Shown one piece after another: positions 34,856-42,912 of a stretch of DNA of 53,618 bases. Source of the DNA: an uncultured archaeon (GTDB lineage: Archaea > Asgardarchaeota > Thorarchaeia > Thorarchaeales > Thorarchaeaceae); the NCBI GenBank assembly GCA_964458565.1, contig CAYWJO010000012.1, positions 23,289-76,906 on the forward strand, in the 5' to 3' direction. A program made the position numbers and the translations under genes. The first letter of the stretch is position 1. Every line of letters begins with the position of its first letter. Under the pieces are notes generated by a model. The model saw nothing but the letters and a program-made list of their open reading frames with translations, was not told where the DNA came from and did not search any database.

Positions 34856-37456
34856 ATGGAAACTGGATTTGTGAAGATGGGATTTAGAAACGCGTTTCGT
34901 AGAAAACGTGTTGCTGCCTTCACAATATTCTCTATTGCACTAGCTGTTAGCCTATTGTATACATCCTTATCTGCCAATGCTAATCTTCAACATAGTGCAA
35001 ATCAATTTCTCGATGATAGTATATCTCCAATTGATATCTCAGTCTCAACTTTCAAGTATGGTGTACGGATTACTAAGGCGCAAGAATACATTATCAAATC
35101 TCTCCCTGGTGTGGAGAAGACGATACCTCGAATTGAGGGGCATGCTTCAATTACCAATGGCAATCAAACAATCTTCTTTCTATTAATTGGAATTGATTTG
35201 AGTATTGAATCACATATAGGTAGTCTTAACGCTACTCAAGGAGTTGTTGATTTATCTGGACGGGGTTGTTACCTCTCTCATGAGGCTTATGATATACTAG
35301 ACAAAGAAATTGGTGAGGAATTGCTATTCAACACATCTGCTGGACTGCAATATCTCAATGTGACTGGAACCGGATTTATTATCGATAAGGGTTTGATTGG
35401 ACCTGTTGTGATAATCTCATTAGAGAAGGCATGGGATATCTATGCAATTCGATTTCCTGATGGTTCCTATAACAAAATGATGATTCAACTGGAAGATATC
35501 TTTGCAGCATCTACAACTATTAACCAACTTGAATCATTACTCAATAGCGACGATGATGACTTTGTAATCACTAATTTGAAAGCATACCATATGCGACTGA
35601 TAGAATCATTCATGATCTATGCTCGATCCATTCTTCTCGCACTAGTGGTATCAGCTGTTTCGATTGCATGGCTTCGCGTTTTCTCTTCTTTCGCTAAGGT
35701 CTTTGCTGAACGTCGCTATGAAACCGGGGTTCTTCTTGCTTTTGGAAGTTCACCAAGTCAGGTCATTCAGGTCTTTATAGTAGAATTGATTGTAATCGGA
35801 ACAATAGGTGCCATATTCGGAGCGATTCTCGGAACTGGACTTGGTTTTGTAGTACTCCAGATGCTACGAGTTCAGGTTCGAATCACAGCAATAGGAACAA
35901 CTGTACAATACTTCAATGCGCCTTATGTCATTGATTTTACAACTCTCTTGTTATCCGGAATCGCTGGTGTTTTTCTTACTGTCATATCTGGTTATCTCCC
36001 AGCATTTAGAGCATCTAGAGAAGCAGTTGTGAAAAGTCTAGGGATTGGATTAGTTGGCCAACAGACAAGTAGTTTGACTATATCTAAAAAACTCAAAAAC
36101 ACAATTTGGAGTGGTCTCAGTCTAGTTGCCTTGTCTATCTGTGGAATAGTATCAATTCAAGCCATCTCAGATTGGTTCGACCTTGAATGGATGTCAGCTG
36201 ACTGGATTAGGATAATGTCAATCCCTGCAGTGCTATTGACTCTAGCAATTTTATCGCCAAAGATTGCAACCTCTACCAAATTGCTTTCTTCGATCTCGAT
36301 ACGAACTAATGAACTCGTACGGGTCTTATCCGGAAAAAATCTTCGCAGAAATACAATCAATGCACTTGTGATATTCAATCTCTTTGCAGCAATCACAGTC
36401 TTGTTTTTCGTGTCAGCAAATGCTGGTTATGCAGTCACTGAAACATGGCGATATACAGTTGCTGGACAGACCTCATCAGCGAATGTTATTGCTCACATTG
36501 ATCCAGCAAGTGATATTGAGATTGTTTCACAGATTGAATCGTTACCAAATGTTACTCGCGTTGTGCCTGCAAATCAAGAGGTAAATTTCTTTACACATTC
36601 GGGTAATATTGAAACTGGTGTTATTCTCGGAGTCGATCCAATTGGATTTGAGGAAATGACTTCGATAGGTGTTGTATCTTCATTCAATCTTACTCAAGGT
36701 CTCTCAATAGTTGAAACGCCCATGACCTGTGTGGTTTCAGAATACACTGCTCGAAAACTTGCTTTGGAATTGGGTGATTCTATACATCTAGAATCAGGTA
36801 ACAACGTCACGGTCGCTGCAATATGCGTGTCTTCTGTTCCTGTCTTCGTTATGACAGTGATCAGTCCAGTTTTCATGATAATCAGCACCGAAACGTGGAG
36901 TCTGATTCAAGGTGCGCCTTATCTGGTTGGTAGCCTACTAATTCAAACCGAAACACCTCAAAATACAGCGTCTATCCTCTCGGATATGCCTGGTTTTCTA
37001 GCGGTACCAATCTCAGATTTGCAGGAAGATATCTTGGCTAATATACAGTACATTCAACTTATCATGGATTCCTCATTACTTGTCCTCGTTGGTGTAACAA
37101 TGGCAAGTGCCATTCTCAGTGGATGGGCTCTAGCCCAGACAAGAAGACGAGAGATTGGACTCCTAGCATCAATGGGTATGACAGATTCTGAAATTGCCTT
37201 AACAATGACGTTGGAAACCTCGGTAGCTATGATTGGAGGGACAATATTTGGGATAATTGCGGGTCTTTTGGTAGAAGCTGCGCTTGCTGATATACTACTC
37301 AGATTCGGTGGTTCTGACATTGCGTTTCTTGATTGGCGAATCGCACTACTGATTGTATTCTCATTGGTTTCTTCCACAATAGCTGTATATTTCGCCATAA
37401 CAAAGGCTGCTGATACTGAGGTGGTAAAACTTCTACGAGAGATGAGTCGAGAGTAG
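34856..37456 (+). CDS. FtsX/MacB-type ABC permease (duplicated domain)
   Basis: Two units of TM, extracellular domain and three TMs, with ERRYETGVLLAFG and RRREIGLLASMG. Confidence 0.85.
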   Translation: METGFVKMGFRNAFRRKRVAAFTIFSIALAVSLLYTSLSANANLQHSANQFLDDSISPIDISVSTFKYGVRITKAQEYIIKSLPGVEKTIPRIEGHASITNGNQTIFFLLIGIDLSIESHIGSLNATQGVVDLSGRGCYLSHEAYDILDKEIGEELLFNTSAGLQYLNVTGTGFIIDKGLIGPVVIISLEKAWDIYAIRFPDGSYNKMMIQLEDIFAASTTINQLESLLNSDDDDFVITNLKAYHMRLIESFMIYARSILLALVVSAVSIAWLRVFSSFAKVFAERRYETGVLLAFGSSPSQVIQVFIVELIVIGTIGAIFGAILGTGLGFVVLQMLRVQVRITAIGTTVQYFNAPYVIDFTTLLLSGIAGVFLTVISGYLPAFRASREAVVKSLGIGLVGQQTSSLTISKKLKNTIWSGLSLVALSICGIVSIQAISDWFDLEWMSADWIRIMSIPAVLLTLAILSPKIATSTKLLSSISIRTNELVRVLSGKNLRRNTINALVIFNLFAAITVLFFVSANAGYAVTETWRYTVAGQTSSANVIAHIDPASDIEIVSQIESLPNVTRVVPANQEVNFFTHSGNIETGVILGVDPIGFEEMTSIGVVSSFNLTQGLSIVETPMTCVVSEYTARKLALELGDSIHLESGNNVTVAAICVSSVPVFVMTVISPVFMIISTETWSLIQGAPYLVGSLLIQTETPQNTASILSDMPGFLAVPISDLQEDILANIQYIQLIMDSSLLVLVGVTMASAILSGWALAQTRRREIGLLASMGMTDSEIALTMTLETSVAMIGGTIFGIIAGLLVEAALADILLRFGGSDIAFLDWRIALLIVFSLVSSTIAVYFAITKAADTEVVKLLREMSRE

Positions 37457-37548
37457 GTGGTCAAGGCCATCAGGGGAAACGTGGTAGGAGGGGGGAGTAA
37501 CTGTTGAGGGCATGTCATAGAAAAAGTCCTAACAGCCTTTATACCACC
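37456..37548 (-). ncRNA. Candidate structured small RNA, copy A
   Basis: Minus-strand stem GGUGGU/ACCACC plus a 12-bp AAGGCUGUUAGG/CCUGAUGGCCUU stem with three G-U pairs. Loop motifs are identical to copy B, and TTATAT lies ~25 nt upstream (37571-37576). Confidence 0.6.
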
Positions 37549-37643
37549 ATTGATTAATCATTTTCAGAGAATATAAGGTCGCCAATTGATTCCCACACAA
37601 TTTAGTTATAAAATGAGCATTCTCGGAAAGATGGGAACTCACA

Positions 37644-38345
37644 ATGCAAACGAGAACGTTATTGGTTGCAAGTATATCATTTGTGGCCCTAGTTATTCCT
37701 TTAATCGCAAGTAATTTGGTTTTTGGTGGTCCCGTCAATGATTCCCAATTAGAGAATGTGAACAATCCTGAACAAACGGGTTCAACAACGATTCCACCCA
37801 CAACAACAATGCCACCCACAACAACGATTCCACCCACCACGCCTTGGTGGACCTCAACATGGTGGACAACAACGACAACCCCAACAACCACTACAACAAC
37901 TACAACGACCTCGACCACTACCACCACAACAACCACAATAACAAGTACAACTGTGGAAACGACCTCAACAATTCCCACGACAATAGAAACAACAACAACA
38001 GAGGTTACTACGTCACCTACCACGACACAAAATTCGACATCTATTGTAGAAACTGAAACTGAGTCCGAGACAGAGTCTGAAACCGAAACAGAATTCACTA
38101 GTAGCACAACTGTCCTCCAGACTAGCAGTTCTAGTACCACTTCTGATTTCACTCAGTTTACAAGCACTATATCTGTAATTGCCACACCTTCTTCAAGTAC
38201 AACTGCAAATACAACAGAAACTACAAGCAGTGGTACACCTCCATGGTGGGAAGGTTCAGGTACTTTTCTGAGTGTGGTAATCACAGGTGGTTCTGTTGTT
38301 GTAATTCTTGTCGTAATCGGAATGGCTTTACGCGGAAGAAAATAA
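37644..38345 (+). CDS. Thr/Ser-rich mucin-like membrane-anchored surface protein
   Basis: Signal peptide, (PPTTT) repeats, poly-Thr, ETETES repeats, then WWEGS, a TM helix and RGRK. Confidence 0.8.
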   Translation: MQTRTLLVASISFVALVIPLIASNLVFGGPVNDSQLENVNNPEQTGSTTIPPTTTMPPTTTIPPTTPWWTSTWWTTTTTPTTTTTTTTTSTTTTTTTTITSTTVETTSTIPTTIETTTTEVTTSPTTTQNSTSIVETETESETESETETEFTSSTTVLQTSSSSTTSDFTQFTSTISVIATPSSSTTANTTETTSSGTPPWWEGSGTFLSVVITGGSVVVILVVIGMALRGRK

Positions 38346-38357
38346 TCCATACATGGA

Positions 38358-38389
38358 TGAAGATGTAGGAGTTCATCCTACAATCTTCA
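38358..38389. terminator. Hairpin between convergent genes
   Basis: TGAAGATGTAGGA..TCCTACAATCTTCA. Confidence 0.55.
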
Positions 38390-38420
38390 ATTATTTTTCA
38401 TTCTCGGAGCAGGCTTTTGA

Positions 38421-38681
38421 TTACTGCATCATTTCCCACGAAGCTTTACATCCATAGTACCCGATAACGGCACAAACGATACCTAGAGCTAAGAAACTAA
38501 TTGCGGATATTGCATTGAAGTAAAATGCTGTACTACCCACTAGAAGAAATATCAACGCGCATGGCCATACTATTAATGTTACGCAACAAACCCCAATTGT
38601 CTTGAACAGGCCCTCTATACTAGTATCTGATCCTCTTCTATCTGGAGGTGGACGTGATGGAGGTACCTCGAATTCTGCCAA
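38421..38681 (-). CDS. Small Cys-rich two-TM membrane protein
   Basis: 86 aa with a Pro-rich N-terminus, two TMs and a GGAGGG SD-like sequence upstream. Confidence 0.6.
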   Translation of the reverse strand: MAEFEVPPSRPPPDRRGSDTSIEGLFKTIGVCCVTLIVWPCALIFLLVGSTAFYFNAISAISFLALGIVCAVIGYYGCKASWEMMQ

Positions 38682-38935
38682 TTCTTTCTCTCTCCCTCCA
38701 CAATAGTTTAGTTATGGCATATTACATTCTGATATATGAATGCAGTGGAAATCTTGACTCAAGTATTACTATACTATGATTTTTCGAATATCTTCTTCCG
38801 GCTCTCACTGATGAGTTCTTGGAACAACTAATCGATAGTATACTAGACACCGCATACTCAAGGCTAGATATTTGAGATTACGTTTTATCCGGAAAAAAAT
38901 GAAGATGGTAGGTCTTTGAAAAAAGACCTCCGTAT

Positions 38936-39382
38936 CTATTCGTATTCAACTTCAAGATTTGTGACGAGCTTTATACAGGAACCAATCAGACAATTGCCGA
39001 TTGGACAATTACTATGAGCCATCTCAAACAATTTTTCCAAACGCTCTTGTTTGATTCCATTCTTCACTATGACCTTGGTATGAATCTCAATAGTTTCGAA
39101 CCGGCTCATCTTTGTATCATCATCAGTTTCATACTGACCAATAATCTCTGAACTGATACCGCTTACCTCGATATGTGCTTTGTCCAATGCGATCTCGAAA
39201 ACGAGATTGACGCATGCACCAATCGATGCTAAGAAAAGGTGATGAGGACTTGTTGATCCAGGTTGGTCTTTTACCATTGGAGGTGGAGTAACGGTTATGC
39301 TCTGATACCCTCCAAGAGTCACTGCGTGTATCTTGTCTGCACCTGTTGAATGAAGTTTCGATGTAAATGTTGAAGTTGCCAT
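38936..39382 (-). CDS. OsmC/Ohr family protein
   Basis: SPHHLFLASIGAC and AHSNCPI conserved Cys pair. Confidence 0.85.
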   Translation of the reverse strand: MATSTFTSKLHSTGADKIHAVTLGGYQSITVTPPPMVKDQPGSTSPHHLFLASIGACVNLVFEIALDKAHIEVSGISSEIIGQYETDDDTKMSRFETIEIHTKVIVKNGIKQERLEKLFEMAHSNCPIGNCLIGSCIKLVTNLEVEYE

Positions 39383-39654
39383 TTCTAAATCACCAATTTA
39401 GGAGTTTGTGAGAAATAGGATTTCTCATCGAGAAAATCGAATTCAATCATTAAATAAGGAAGTGGAATGCGGCCATAAGCTCAAATTATTTTCAAAAAAA
39501 TTTCAGTAATTTACTACTCAGATATCCCCTGCTAAAAAAAACTCAATAAAATAAATTTGGGGTGTTGAAGGGATGATGATATCATGAATGCGAAAGGCGT
39601 AATAGTTGAGAAATACTCTCATATTTGTGGAATCTTAGAATAGGTAGTGGTTCT

Positions 39655-39846
39655 ATGGTAAAGATAGACAAGTTAACTAAAGCAGGCCAGGGCGGACGTT
39701 CTTCCGAACAAGGATTTGTTGTAGAGTTAGCGATGACTACAGAAGAAGCAGCAAAACTCGTTGAAGCACTTAATAGACGCATTAAGAAACACCCCTCCAG
39801 ACAGTTACATGTGATTGTGATGGAAGACCATGTGTATGTAGGCTAG
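39655..39846 (+). CDS. Small hypothetical protein (63 aa)
   Basis: ATG at 39655 and protein-like composition. Confidence 0.5.
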   Translation: MVKIDKLTKAGQGGRSSEQGFVVELAMTTEEAAKLVEALNRRIKKHPSRQLHVIVMEDHVYVG

Positions 39847-40070
39847 TTCAGAACTTGTTCATTATTGCTACACGATTCTTTCAGTCTTCACTCTTAAGAC
39901 CATGGCATGAACCCGATGTCCAAACTCGAGAAATCTGATGAATAAGCACCTCAAGTGAATAAGAGGAATACCTCAAAAATGCGAAAGATATGATGCACTT
40001 GGAGGACAAGTATGTCAGCATAAAGATAGATGATGGGACAGAGCCTCAAATAGCGATGTGTAGATAAAAT

Positions 40071-40137
40071 AAGAATGGAGGGGTCCGTTCCTCAAACCCG
40101 GAGGTTGGGAGTTTCTGGTGGGTGGACCCCACCTCTT
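40071..40137. ncRNA. Candidate structured element E
   Basis: GGGGTCC/GGACCCC stem, internal AACC-CGGA-GGTT hairpin, and GGAGTTTCTGG shared with element D. Confidence 0.35.
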
Positions 40138-40204
40138 TGTGTCCTCAGGTGATAGCACTAGAGCTGTTCAAAATCCTCTTTACTAGCAAGACTTTGCATT
40201 TTCA

Positions 40205-40351
40205 ATGGCTGAGGTCAGGAAGAAACTTCCCGATGCGTGGTTTCCGGAGAAGCGAAGCCACTCGCAAGAAGATGTAGTAATGGTTCAGGCGCCACTCAGT
40301 GAGTTTATAGAGCCAAGTGTGATATTGGAAGAAGGAGGAGAATACTCATGA
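40205..40351 (+). CDS. Candidate 48-aa ORF
   Basis: Its stop overlaps the next start (ATGA). Confidence 0.3.
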   Translation: MAEVRKKLPDAWFPEKRSHSQEDVVMVQAPLSEFIEPSVILEEGGEYS

Positions 40352-40458
40352 TTGGTGGCAATGGGTGGAAATTTGTTGAGTTAAAGATCAAAAGGGACAA
40401 AATACTCGAAGTCGTTTGTGGTTACATCAACAGGAAACTGGGAGGTCGAGCATCCTGA
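40348..40458 (+). CDS. Candidate 36-aa ORF
   Basis: GGAGGAG SD; MIGGNGWKFVELKIKRDKILEVVCGYINRKLGGRAS; its stop overlaps the next ORF. Confidence 0.35.
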   Translation: MIGGNGWKFVELKIKRDKILEVVCGYINRKLGGRAS

Positions 40459-41018
40459 GTGAATGGCAGGATGGATATGAGGGCATCAAGAATGTAGACC
40501 TGGGTGTTGACCTGGAGTCACTTATCGACACCCCTGATGATGATATGGACCCTCAGACTGCTGAACTGATGGTGCTTGCCAATCTGAGCATGGATGCTAT
40601 AGAGTCCTTCGATGATGGGGATAGCTATGAATCGCTCAAGTGGGATGAGGAACTCGTGGACAGTCAACTCTGTATTGTTCCCACACGCATCTACCCGATA
40701 TCTGACCACGGGAACATCTACCTTCGTCTATGGTGTTACCTCTGTATCCTCGATGCTGACACAGAGTCTGTTGAGGTCAAGAGAGCTACGTTGCCACTCC
40801 CCTCTAGACTGAGGATGGCATTGGGAATCGATCCAGATACCTTCGTTGGAGTAAGGGCGGACCCATTGACGGATTCAAAGGTATTGATGTTCAAGACTGT
40901 CTATCACGGTCTTCAGGAGTATGAGACCGAGGGTGAGAAACGCAGGTTTCATAGATTTGGTGAAATAACACTCTTTAGAGGAGTTAGAAAGTCCGAGCAT
41001 GAAGATGACGATATATAG
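40416..41018 (+). CDS. Hypothetical acidic protein (start possibly CTG 40455)
   Basis: 200-aa ORF; GGAGGT SD at 40441 precedes an in-frame CTG. Confidence 0.65.
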   Translation: MWLHQQETGRSSILSEWQDGYEGIKNVDLGVDLESLIDTPDDDMDPQTAELMVLANLSMDAIESFDDGDSYESLKWDEELVDSQLCIVPTRIYPISDHGNIYLRLWCYLCILDADTESVEVKRATLPLPSRLRMALGIDPDTFVGVRADPLTDSKVLMFKTVYHGLQEYETEGEKRRFHRFGEITLFRGVRKSEHEDDDI

Positions 41019-41316
41019 AATGTTGATAGTTAGGTAATATAGTGTGACTCTTGATACTCCAATTCGTTTGTACAGAGATGAGAATGAGAAATTCTACTTG
41101 TGGATATCTCCAATGTGTGGGAATAGAGTTCTATGTAATGAGATTTTCGTGCTTTGCACCATTGATACTCAATTCAACACTCCCTTATCCAACCGGAGTG
41201 GATTTATTACGATGTTAATCAATACATATGTGCAGTGGGATGCGGAAAGGGAATCCTGTTTCAAACCTGAGGCATTATGCTTCAAGTCTTCTCATCATCT
41301 AATTGGAGGTAATCAT

Positions 41317-41565
41317 GTGGAAAAGTGGAAGAGTTTCGTGATTATTGGAGGGTTGGTCGGAGTCATCATCAACATGATGGCTGAAGTGTTCTATCTGATT
41401 GCTATCAATCGATTCACTGCACTTGAGGACATTGTAAACACAATTACCGACTATGCATTAATCTCGTTTGTACTAGGAATGTGGTTGAGCATTGTCATCA
41501 TTGTTGGTTTGTCTGGGTGGCTGACTGTAGAAACAAGAAAAGATCAAGCTGGAAAATCACCATAA
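41317..41565 (+). CDS. Small two-TM membrane protein
   Basis: GGAGGT SD plus GTG at 41317, inside the 41044-41565 ORF. Confidence 0.55.
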   Translation: MEKWKSFVIIGGLVGVIINMMAEVFYLIAINRFTALEDIVNTITDYALISFVLGMWLSIVIIVGLSGWLTVETRKDQAGKSP

Positions 41566-41599
41566 TCCTCAAGTACGGAAAATTCAGTCTAGATAAGGA

Positions 41600-41696
41600 G
41601 TGCCAGAGGGGATGGAGTCGTTCTGACTAGCCCCTCTGTAGGTAGGTAATTTTCAAGAAGGAGTTCGTCCTCTCCAGATATTGGAGTTTCTGGCAC
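41600..41696. ncRNA. Candidate structured element D
   Basis: GTGCCAGA/TCTGGCAC outer stem, a competing CAGAGGGG/CCCCTCTG stem and a CTCCA-GATAT-TGGAG hairpin. Confidence 0.4.
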
Positions 41697-41897
41697 AAGA
41701 AGAGTGACTCTATTCAGAGAAGGACTTAAATCAAATGCTAAACTATGTATTCAATCGGTAGGTTCCTGTTCCATGAGATTTTAGTAGACTAAAAGCACTA
41801 TGGTCAATCCTGAAAATACATCTCTCACCCAATCTTGTCATAGATCTTATTTTGAATCGTGGTGGAGAAATTCATTCATTCTCCTAGTGTCCTTGAA

Positions 41898-42007
41898 AGT
41901 GAGTGGAGCAGTCACCGAGAGATTTGTGGTAGGAGGGGGGAGTTTTTTGTATGAGGGCATGTTATCTCTTAAAAAAACATAGCTCCCGATGACTGGCTAC
42001 CACCACT
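41898..42007 (-). ncRNA. Candidate structured small RNA, copy B
   Basis: Minus-strand 13-bp stem CAGUCAUCGGGAG/CUCUCGGUGACUG with two G-U pairs, plus an outer stem. Loop motifs are identical to copy A, and a TATA-like TTTAAATTAAA lies ~20-28 nt upstream. Confidence 0.6.
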
Positions 42008-42118
42008 ATTCATTAACCAGTCCTTTAATTTAAATGCATCGGAGTAAAGTGTCTATCTCGTAATAGGGCATAAGCACCGAGACACAATATATATCAAAGC
42101 TCTATCTAATATAATATC

Positions 42119-42230
42119 GTGGTAATGAATCCGACTGAGGTTTCCAGAGACGAAACAAAGTACTTCCAGCCGATATACCCGTCTACTGAGCTATATACTT
42201 GTATTATCTAACTCAGTCTGATCCTACCAC
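42119..42230 (+). ncRNA. Candidate structured small RNA C, divergent from B
   Basis: GTGGTA/TACCAC and GACTGAG/CTCAGTC stems around a ~70-nt loop, with AATATATAT ~25-33 nt upstream. Confidence 0.45.
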
Positions 42231-42253
42231 ACATCTTTGGGAGAATGAGTGTC

Positions 42254-42367
42254 ATGTCTGAGAGAGAAGCTCAACCGCAGAGAGAGAAGCAACCTGAGAT
42301 GGGACTTGAAGAAGCCAAGAAATCTGGTCTGGTGAAGGATAAGAAGAAGAAAAAGGATAAGAAATGA
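42254..42367 (+). CDS. Candidate 37-aa Lys-tailed peptide
   Basis: MSEREAQPQREKQPEMGLEEAKKSGLVKDKKKKKDKK, with GGGAGA upstream. Confidence 0.35.
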   Translation: MSEREAQPQREKQPEMGLEEAKKSGLVKDKKKKKDKK

Positions 42368-42912
42368 AGAGTCATGACACGAATGTCTATTATCTTTGAA
42401 TCATAATAGTTGGCCGCAAGCTGCTCTTACCCGAGTCAAACTGGAGTTAGTTATGAGTTCAGAATATAAAATGTCACAACAGAATGAGTAGTTTAATTGT
42501 ATGGGTGAATGATGATATTCCAGGAGGATTCAAACTCAAGATATTGATGCATTGTTGAAGACGAATTGAATGCGAAATCTAGAAAATGATATAAAGATAA
42601 ATTGAATAAACATCAATCAGTCGATGTCCCTATGCTGGATTCATTGATTTTCACACAGTGATTTGTGTATACAGAGGGTATTAAGAATGAAGAAATATTT
42701 CCGATGTCAAATAACTTCAATGTTGCTCCTTGCAGTCATTGGTCTTCCAGTTATTGTTCAGGCACTTCCACCCCCCACCTTGCCGGGTTTCCTATCTTTA
42801 CACCTATGCATTTATACCTAATGGAAATTCCAGTTCCATTTTTTCAGTCATGAGGAAACTCTCAAAACATAAAATAATATACTGACTCCTAGGTTAAGAG
42901 AGGAGTTTCAAC

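Follow-up and report, generated by a model that had tools for sequence, protein, structure and literature searches.

Y RNAs, stem-bulge RNAs and vault RNAs are about 100 nt long, pair their ends into a stem with an internal loop, expose a pyrimidine-rich unpaired center, finish in a short 3′ overhang, and are encoded by several paralogues. In archaea, the intergenic small RNA (sRNA) sRNA162 of Methanosarcina mazei is thought to pair with translation-initiation regions. In bacteria, RoxS binds Shine–Dalgarno (SD) sequences through C-rich regions and inhibits initiation (PMC5419742). Here, we describe a family of RNA genes that shares traits with each of these systems and that came to light through two elements, A and B, in a 53,618-nt stretch (the window) of the genome of an uncultured archaeon (assembly GCA_964458565.1, contig CAYWJO010000012.1, positions 23,289 to 76,906). 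We are close to certain that A and B belong to a genuine, uncatalogued family of structured RNA genes; its distribution is confined to a single order of Asgard archaea, Thorarchaeota.

Family members are about 85 to 110 nt long and are closed by a stem of 14 to 22 bp, composed of P1, an internal loop, and P2, whose sequence changes with each paralogue and orthologue while its strands stay complementary. The stem encloses an almost invariant core of about 50 nt, consisting of a U-tract, a small hairpin with the 10-nt loop CAUGCCCUCA, and a single strand of about 20 nt that reads ACU, five to nine C residues, UCCUACC, the length of the C-tract differing between copies. Comparison of the most divergent members reduces the conserved sequence to UGCCCUCA and AACUC(n)UCCUA, two motifs of the CCCUC type. 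We analyzed covariation with explicit structures in two alignments, one comprising 28 non-redundant orthologues of the subtype that we call C-type (alignment A3), and the other 18 sequences of the D- and E-types together with element B (alignment A4). In the C-type stem, 11 of the 14 pairs show changes on both sides, and 94.8% of the cells are paired; sliding the partner strand by one to three columns reduced this to at most 53.5%, and 0 of 500 shuffles reached the observed value. In the second alignment, both-side changes occur in 17 of 25 pairs (P1, 8 of 12; P2, 8 of 9), with 89.4% of the cells paired versus at most 49.9% after sliding. The covariation check thus gave a strong signal in both subtype alignments. 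RNAalifold returned 0 pairs from a mixed-subtype MAFFT alignment, in which the subtypes lie one column out of register. An inner helix, P3, closing the CAUGCCCUCA loop (GUAA/UUAC in the E-type, UUUCGU/ACGAAA in the C-type, U6/A6 in B), is weakly suggested, solely through differences between subtypes.

The two alignments together contain 103 G·U cells and 10 A·C cells, and the folded RNA strand is therefore the minus strand of the window. Averaged over 104 members, the unpaired probability is 0.94 for the C-rich 3′ strand, 0.80 for the loop, and 0.13 for the arms. Covariation, G·U asymmetry, and these probabilities bear out the proposal, made in an initial annotation of the window, that conserved C-rich segments are displayed unpaired on compensated minus-strand stems. 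Four loci (L108, L120, L147, and L189) carry an extra hairpin of 25 to 60 nt in or just before the CAUGCCCUCA loop (inside it in L189), and this site therefore tolerates expansion.

Element A (37456..37548, minus strand) is a gene copy of 93 nt, predicted to fold on the minus strand at −23.2 kcal/mol with a closing stem of 6 + 12 bp, namely P1 of 6 bp, a 3-nt/1-nt internal loop, and P2 of 12 bp, around the C-rich core. The 5′ strand of P1 (GGUGGU, 37543..37548) pairs with 37456–37461, and that of P2 (37528..37539) with 37463–37474, in 12 bp that include three G·U pairs; the helix homologous to this P2 covaries in both alignments. The invariant loop L3, CAUGCCCUCA, lies at 37505..37514 (unpaired probability 0.83), and the invariant 3′ single strand (ACU, C-tract, UCCUACCAC), which contains CCUCCUA, at 37481..37498 (0.95). 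Element B (41898..42005, minus strand; about 108 nt) folds at −35.2 kcal/mol (z = −4.4) into 5 + 3 bp of P1, 12 bp of P2, and the U6/A6 inner helix P3, again around the C-rich core. According to RNAfold, the 5′ strand of its P2 (41984..41995) pairs with 41910–41921 over 12 bp, G·U pairs included; its loop L3, CAUGCCCUCA, is at 41952..41961 (unpaired probability 0.70), and its C-rich 3′ single strand with CCUCCUA at 41926..41943 (0.99). Both closing stems depend on G·U pairs that become A·C on the plus strand. Long minus-strand stems requiring G·U pairs, as first proposed for the two elements, were thus reproduced by folding; the 13-bp stem envisaged for B emerged with 12 bp, its thirteenth pair (41983–41909) going into P1. 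Re-reading the sequence also returned the shared words, which are an exact 18-mer (37481–37498 in A and 41926–41943 in B), an exact 11-mer in the same window (37505–37515 and 41952–41962), and TACCACCA at the right-hand end of each element (37542–37549 and 41998–42005). At up to two mismatches, the 18-mer occurs twice in the window versus 0.01 times expected from 100 shuffles. A covariance model, R1, built from 28 orthologues of the host and other genomes, matched both elements over its full length (A, 37458–37542 on the minus strand, 45 bits, E = 2.7e-8; B, 41904–41998 on the minus strand, 48.5 bits, E = 3.9e-9).

Judging by the flanking signals, each copy is most likely a transcription unit of its own on the window minus strand, with a TATA element at about −28 and a pyrimidine/U-rich tract beyond the 3′ arm. 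Of the 24 D-type copies, 21 have a TATA-like hexamer (consensus CTTAWTAGG) about 28 nt before P1 begins, as do 25 of the 33 E-type copies. Past the 3′ arm come a conserved unpaired ACC or AAC and then the pyrimidine/U-rich tract. The TATA-like boxes noted earlier on the minus strand upstream of both window elements were found 20 to 31 nt away: CCTTATATT (37570..37578, minus strand) lies 22 to 30 nt upstream of the P1 5′ end of A, and ATTTAAATTAAA (42025..42036, minus strand) 20 to 31 nt upstream of that of B. C-type copies have no box at the distance of about 28 nt; their transcripts may include a leader or run on from the preceding gene, tes.

The initial annotation had treated A and B as a two-copy family, a count that did not hold: the host genome (3.73 Mb in 93 contigs, 93% complete) carries at least seven copies, with seven or eight located by nhmmer and pattern scans, and related genomes carry hundreds. 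Besides A and B on contig C12, they are copy C (C2:172579-172725), copy D (C24:24732-24872), copy E (C2:963-1111), copy F (C16:799-946), and copy G, which is split across the ends of contigs C14 and C52. The arms of A, B, C, D, and G differ in sequence from copy to copy and keep their complementarity. Copies E and F are without the 5′ arm and retain the core plus the 3′ arm. In both, a 26-codon 5′ fragment of a small membrane-protein paralogue enters the core and ends at a UAG at the base of the loop; full copies of that gene lie at C16:114-677 and 1136-1699. Over 253 nt, the fusions share 92% identity, which indicates a deletion/fusion that was duplicated afterwards.

Among 87 genomes of the GTDB order to which the archaeon belongs, 82 contain a core pattern (CAUGCCCUCA, 2–30 nt, CCCCCUCCUACC). 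Its copy number ranges from 0 to 7 per genome and is typically about three, and the reversed control pattern gave 0 matches in the same scan. Model R1 matched 25 of 26 and 1 of 1 genomes from the two families of the order and none of 124 genomes from 25 other Asgard families. The covariance-model search for more homologues that had been suggested for the two elements thus found them across the order and nowhere else in the Asgard set. In a named genome collection, the matching records were Thorarchaeota, metagenome-assembled genomes labeled generically as 'Promethearchaeota', 'archaeon', or uncultured archaeon, and one 'Hermodarchaeota' bin. A scan of metagenome contigs added more than 116 DNA contigs, and the family is common in sediment metagenomes; all of the added contigs exceed 1 kb, and none is recognizable as a transcript. 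Viral contigs yielded 0 family matches, and a full-text literature search did not find a description of the family. In the 87-genome scan, many matches fall no more than about 350 nt from the end of a contig; short-read assembly of Thorarchaeota genomes is evidently interrupted by the 45- to 60-nt core, which is identical between paralogues.

Three old subtypes (C, D, and E) are distinguished by the spacer between two conserved words. The C-type is nearly universal, present once per genome, and closed by a single 14-bp stem, whereas D-type and E-type members have P1, the internal loop, and P2. Every subtype retains its own gene neighborhood across genera, and the subtypes are therefore vertically inherited paralogues rather than mobile copies. 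C-type copies have the tetraether lipid synthase gene tes (NF045702, 626 bits) on their upstream side and PhzF-like and TldD/PmbA genes on their downstream side, and are found 200 to 320 nt beyond tes on the same strand (L110, L012, L089, and about 50 other loci). The D-type adjoins a VWA gene, and the E-type a PAS histidine kinase and unknown proteins. Elements A and B have unique spacers, unlike those of the three subtypes, and are probably lineage-specific extra copies.

The family was compared with described RNA classes. Rfam 15 gave 0 matches at gathering thresholds in the whole window, and a search around the elements at E up to 10 returned only two chance-level matches elsewhere, with E > 5. 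ARAGORN found 0 tRNA or transfer-messenger RNA genes in the window. The view that the elements are not tRNA, signal recognition particle RNA, RNase P RNA, or C/D or H/ACA RNA is consistent with this lack of any Rfam or ARAGORN match. A C/D box sRNA was rejected, as neither alignment has conserved columns for the C (RUGAUGA) and D (CUGA) boxes and the internal loop varies freely. An H/ACA sRNA was rejected as well: the 3′ tails read ACC or AAC, the large loop is invariant rather than guide-like, and Rfam has no match. The internal loop is too variable in size and sequence for a bulge-helix-bulge (splicing or circularization) motif or a kink-turn. A likeness to the initiator-tRNA anticodon loop (CUCAUAA) is seen in the D-type only and was taken as coincidence.

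Homology to RsaE was rejected in the absence of a match to the Rfam RsaE model, and the resemblance to RoxS/RsaE RNAs of Firmicutes (PMC5419742) is one of design: a small stand-alone RNA shows several unpaired C-rich motifs complementary to G-rich SD sequences. At least two such motifs, as in RoxS/RsaE-type RNAs, are unpaired across the 104 members (the loop at 0.80 and the strand at 0.94). The family differs from RoxS/RsaE in having no sequence or covariance-model similarity to them, in being archaeal and present at 1 to 7 copies per genome, and in enclosing its motifs within a long closing stem, whereas RoxS/RsaE consist of two hairpins and a terminator. Its invariant region is also far longer, and its target pairing is a prediction from complementarity. 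With the archaeal 16S 3′ tail it shares an identical single-stranded CCUCCUA that can pair with UAGGAGG; unlike the tail, it comes from a dedicated gene of about 100 nt under a predicted promoter, and no other part of 16S is common to the two. It also has the length, end-pairing stem, pyrimidine-rich center, paralogue number, and overhang of Y, stem-bulge, and vault RNAs. Y RNAs, however, combine a conserved Ro-binding stem with a variable loop, and the family does the reverse, with stems that vary and covary and an invariant loop. Together with the failure to find a TROVE/Ro partner gene, this led us to reject a Y RNA assignment: PF05731 (TROVE/Ro60) had no match in the 93%-complete genome, in which the positive controls were detected. 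In contrast to archaeal sRNAs of the sRNA162 type, which are single-copy and confined to a genus, the family is order-wide and multi-copy and has an invariant core.

The C-rich strand of the core holds CCUCCUA, the last bases (anti-SD tail) of Thorarchaeota 16S rRNA. The 16S sequence ends in ...CACCUCCUACG in two genera and in ...CACCUCCUAAG in a third, and spare tails in the host genome end in ...AUCACCUCCUA; Thorarchaeota 16S genes end ...CACCUCCUA(C/A)G, and the sRNA reads ...CCCUCCUACC. Five spare copies of the 16S 3′ tail lie on host contig C54, and Thorarchaeota 16S genes (L166 in genome G003 and L168 in genome G005) contain inserts in the helix-45 region just before the anti-SD tail. 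Initiation in the host genome is SD-led, with GGAGGT (12-fold), AGGAGG (8-fold), and TAGGAG (6-fold) enriched at −18 to −4 of long ORFs, and UAGGAG and AGGAGG enriched at −16 to −6. The unpaired segments had been predicted to complement both SD and AUG contexts; CCUCCUA and the enriched UAGGAG/AGGAGG agree with the SD part, whereas the AUG part drew no support, the loop complement GAGGGCAUG being no more frequent at gene starts than sibling 9-mers.

Because the RNA has two unpaired CCCUC-type motifs, CCUCCUA is identical to the 16S tail, and the genome is SD-led, the closest functional analogy is to RoxS/RsaE. We tentatively favor an anti-SD-like riboregulator, on the strength of these comparisons, while holding it somewhat less probable than its rivals taken together. 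In such a mechanism, the covarying closing stem would hold the core open as a presentation platform for the two CCCUC-type motifs. SD-led mRNAs would be recognized at their G-rich ribosome-binding sites (UAGGAGG...) through pairing with the exposed C-rich strands. The pairing would shut off or modulate initiation, the way RoxS/RsaE act in Firmicutes, and the paralogues would supply dosage or differently regulated promoters. Variation of the C-tract from five to nine residues between copies fits short independent seeds better than a long duplex or a rigid tertiary fold. An extension of this proposal, which we consider unlikely, is that Thorarchaeota sRNAs display a free copy of the anti-SD as a mimic or decoy, setting the global balance of SD-dependent initiation or of 30S maturation; the RNA would then titrate SD-led mRNAs or factors that handle the 16S 3′ end. 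To our knowledge, no such principle of translation control by an anti-SD mimic has been described in archaea.

Several results weigh against the riboregulator. In the host genome, the complement of the 18-mer at up to three mismatches occurs only in family copies; sites in the genome that are complementary over at least 10 nt amount to 15 and 20, versus 39 and 17 for reversed controls; and GAGGGCAUG, as noted, shows no enrichment where genes begin. With 16S and 23S rRNA of two genera, neither conserved segment forms a better duplex than shuffled segments do. A typical SD, UAGGAGGUGAU, pairs over 11 nt with 16S and over 7 nt with the sRNA, and competition would therefore need a high abundance of the sRNA. 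The 7-nt identity to the 16S tail could itself be due to chance in a C/U-rich segment (rough estimate, 0.02–0.05). The region is represented in eight sequencing runs, all of them salt-marsh DNA assemblies and none of them RNA. Finally, the roughly 30 invariant bases far exceed an SD-binding seed and point to a protein or a fixed partner.

The last point leads to a protein-bound scaffold or decoy, a ribonucleoprotein (RNP) in which the invariant core is a sequence-specific protein site and the stem contributes stability only. We regard this possibility as doubtful in itself yet nearly as likely as the riboregulator. For example, the U-tract that separates P2 from P3 could be occupied by an Sm-like protein, or the two CCCUC motifs could be bound in the KH/poly(C) manner, and the RNA would carry or titrate its protein in the manner of Y, vault, or CsrB-type RNAs. 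About 30 bases invariant across the order next to freely varying stems are typical of protein or RNP contacts, the unpaired ACC/AAC tail beyond the stem is conserved too, the genome has three LSm genes, and the searches for RNA targets found none. With its two to seven paralogues that share identical cores, the family also resembles the Y RNAs, vault RNAs, and Rsm RNAs. This account has to contend, however, with neighboring genes (Tes, PhzF-like, TldD, VWA, OsmC, and PAS kinase) that are of metabolic or membrane type and include no conserved RNA-binding protein, with the missing TROVE/Ro gene, and with a C-tract whose length of five to nine residues is unusual for a tight sequence-specific site. 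A less probable alternative, which we rate slightly below even the decoy extension, is that CCUCCUA(C) imitates the 16S tail or the D-site of pre-16S rRNA and titrates a Nob1-, Pno1/Dim2-, or KsgA-type factor or an initiation factor, which would couple the sRNA level to ribosome maturation or SD-dependent initiation. Identity with the tail across Thorarchaeota genera and the spare 16S tails of the host genome are in keeping with such mimicry. The identity spans only 7 to 8 nt, however; beyond it, sense-strand likeness to rRNA is confined to chance-level 7- to 9-mers, neither helix 45 nor the remainder of the tail being matched, and the base after CCUCCUA does not covary (in G005, A in 16S and C in the sRNA).

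Explanations that dispense with the minus-strand RNA are much weaker. The copies might be DNA-level or mobile elements, such as a miniature inverted-repeat transposable element with terminal inverted repeats, an integrase attachment (att) site, or a G-quadruplex on the G-rich strand. Their multiplicity, the many matches at contig ends, and the reduction of copies E and F to core plus 3′ arm, like att remnants, would suit such elements, and the G-rich strand could, from its sequence, form a two-tetrad quadruplex. Yet the arms differ between copies and covary, neither target-site duplications nor a transposase were seen, and viral contigs gave 0 matches; the one-strand G·U bias of 103:10, which is not expected of a double-stranded DNA site, and the synteny of each subtype across genera largely exclude DNA-level readings, which we consider very improbable. 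The last possibility, that the plus, G-rich strand is the functional one, serving as a leader in which a strong SD (GGAGGGGGG) precedes a tiny ORF that opens with the conserved AUG, seems to us scarcely tenable. The order of SD-like sequence, spacer, and AUG is as such a leader would have it, and a gene-like sequence follows in E and F. The tiny ORFs, however, differ in every subtype (AUG UAA in the C-type, two to seven codons elsewhere), A·C mismatches break the stems, the promoter boxes lie on the opposite strand, and the 'gene' after E and F is the antisense of the gene fragment on the RNA strand.

Two further stretches near B are predicted to be structured. On the plus strand, positions 42119–42230 ('element C', distinct from copy C) form a hairpin-closed candidate RNA that is oriented away from B, carries an AT-rich box of its own, and folds at z = −2.8. 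It was rejected as a family member, since R1 did not match it and a BLAST search of the 86 other genomes of the order gave no match. It is followed by a 37-codon lysine-rich ORF (42255–42368). Within the gene-poor interval 41566–42912, a 101-nt stretch (41598–41698, plus strand) folds strongly (−41.1 kcal/mol, z = −4.3).

Asgard archaea are the closest prokaryotic relatives of eukaryotes, and their non-coding RNAs are almost unexplored. The family described here is order-wide, comprises several paralogues, covaries strongly, and is absent from Rfam and from the literature searched. It evidently accounts for recurrent contig breaks in Thorarchaeota assemblies, and the covariance model is ready for use in annotating Thorarchaeota genomes. 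The family also offers an easily synthesized RNA for pull-downs, toeprinting, and structural work. The invariant core directs attention to translation initiation or to an RNP.

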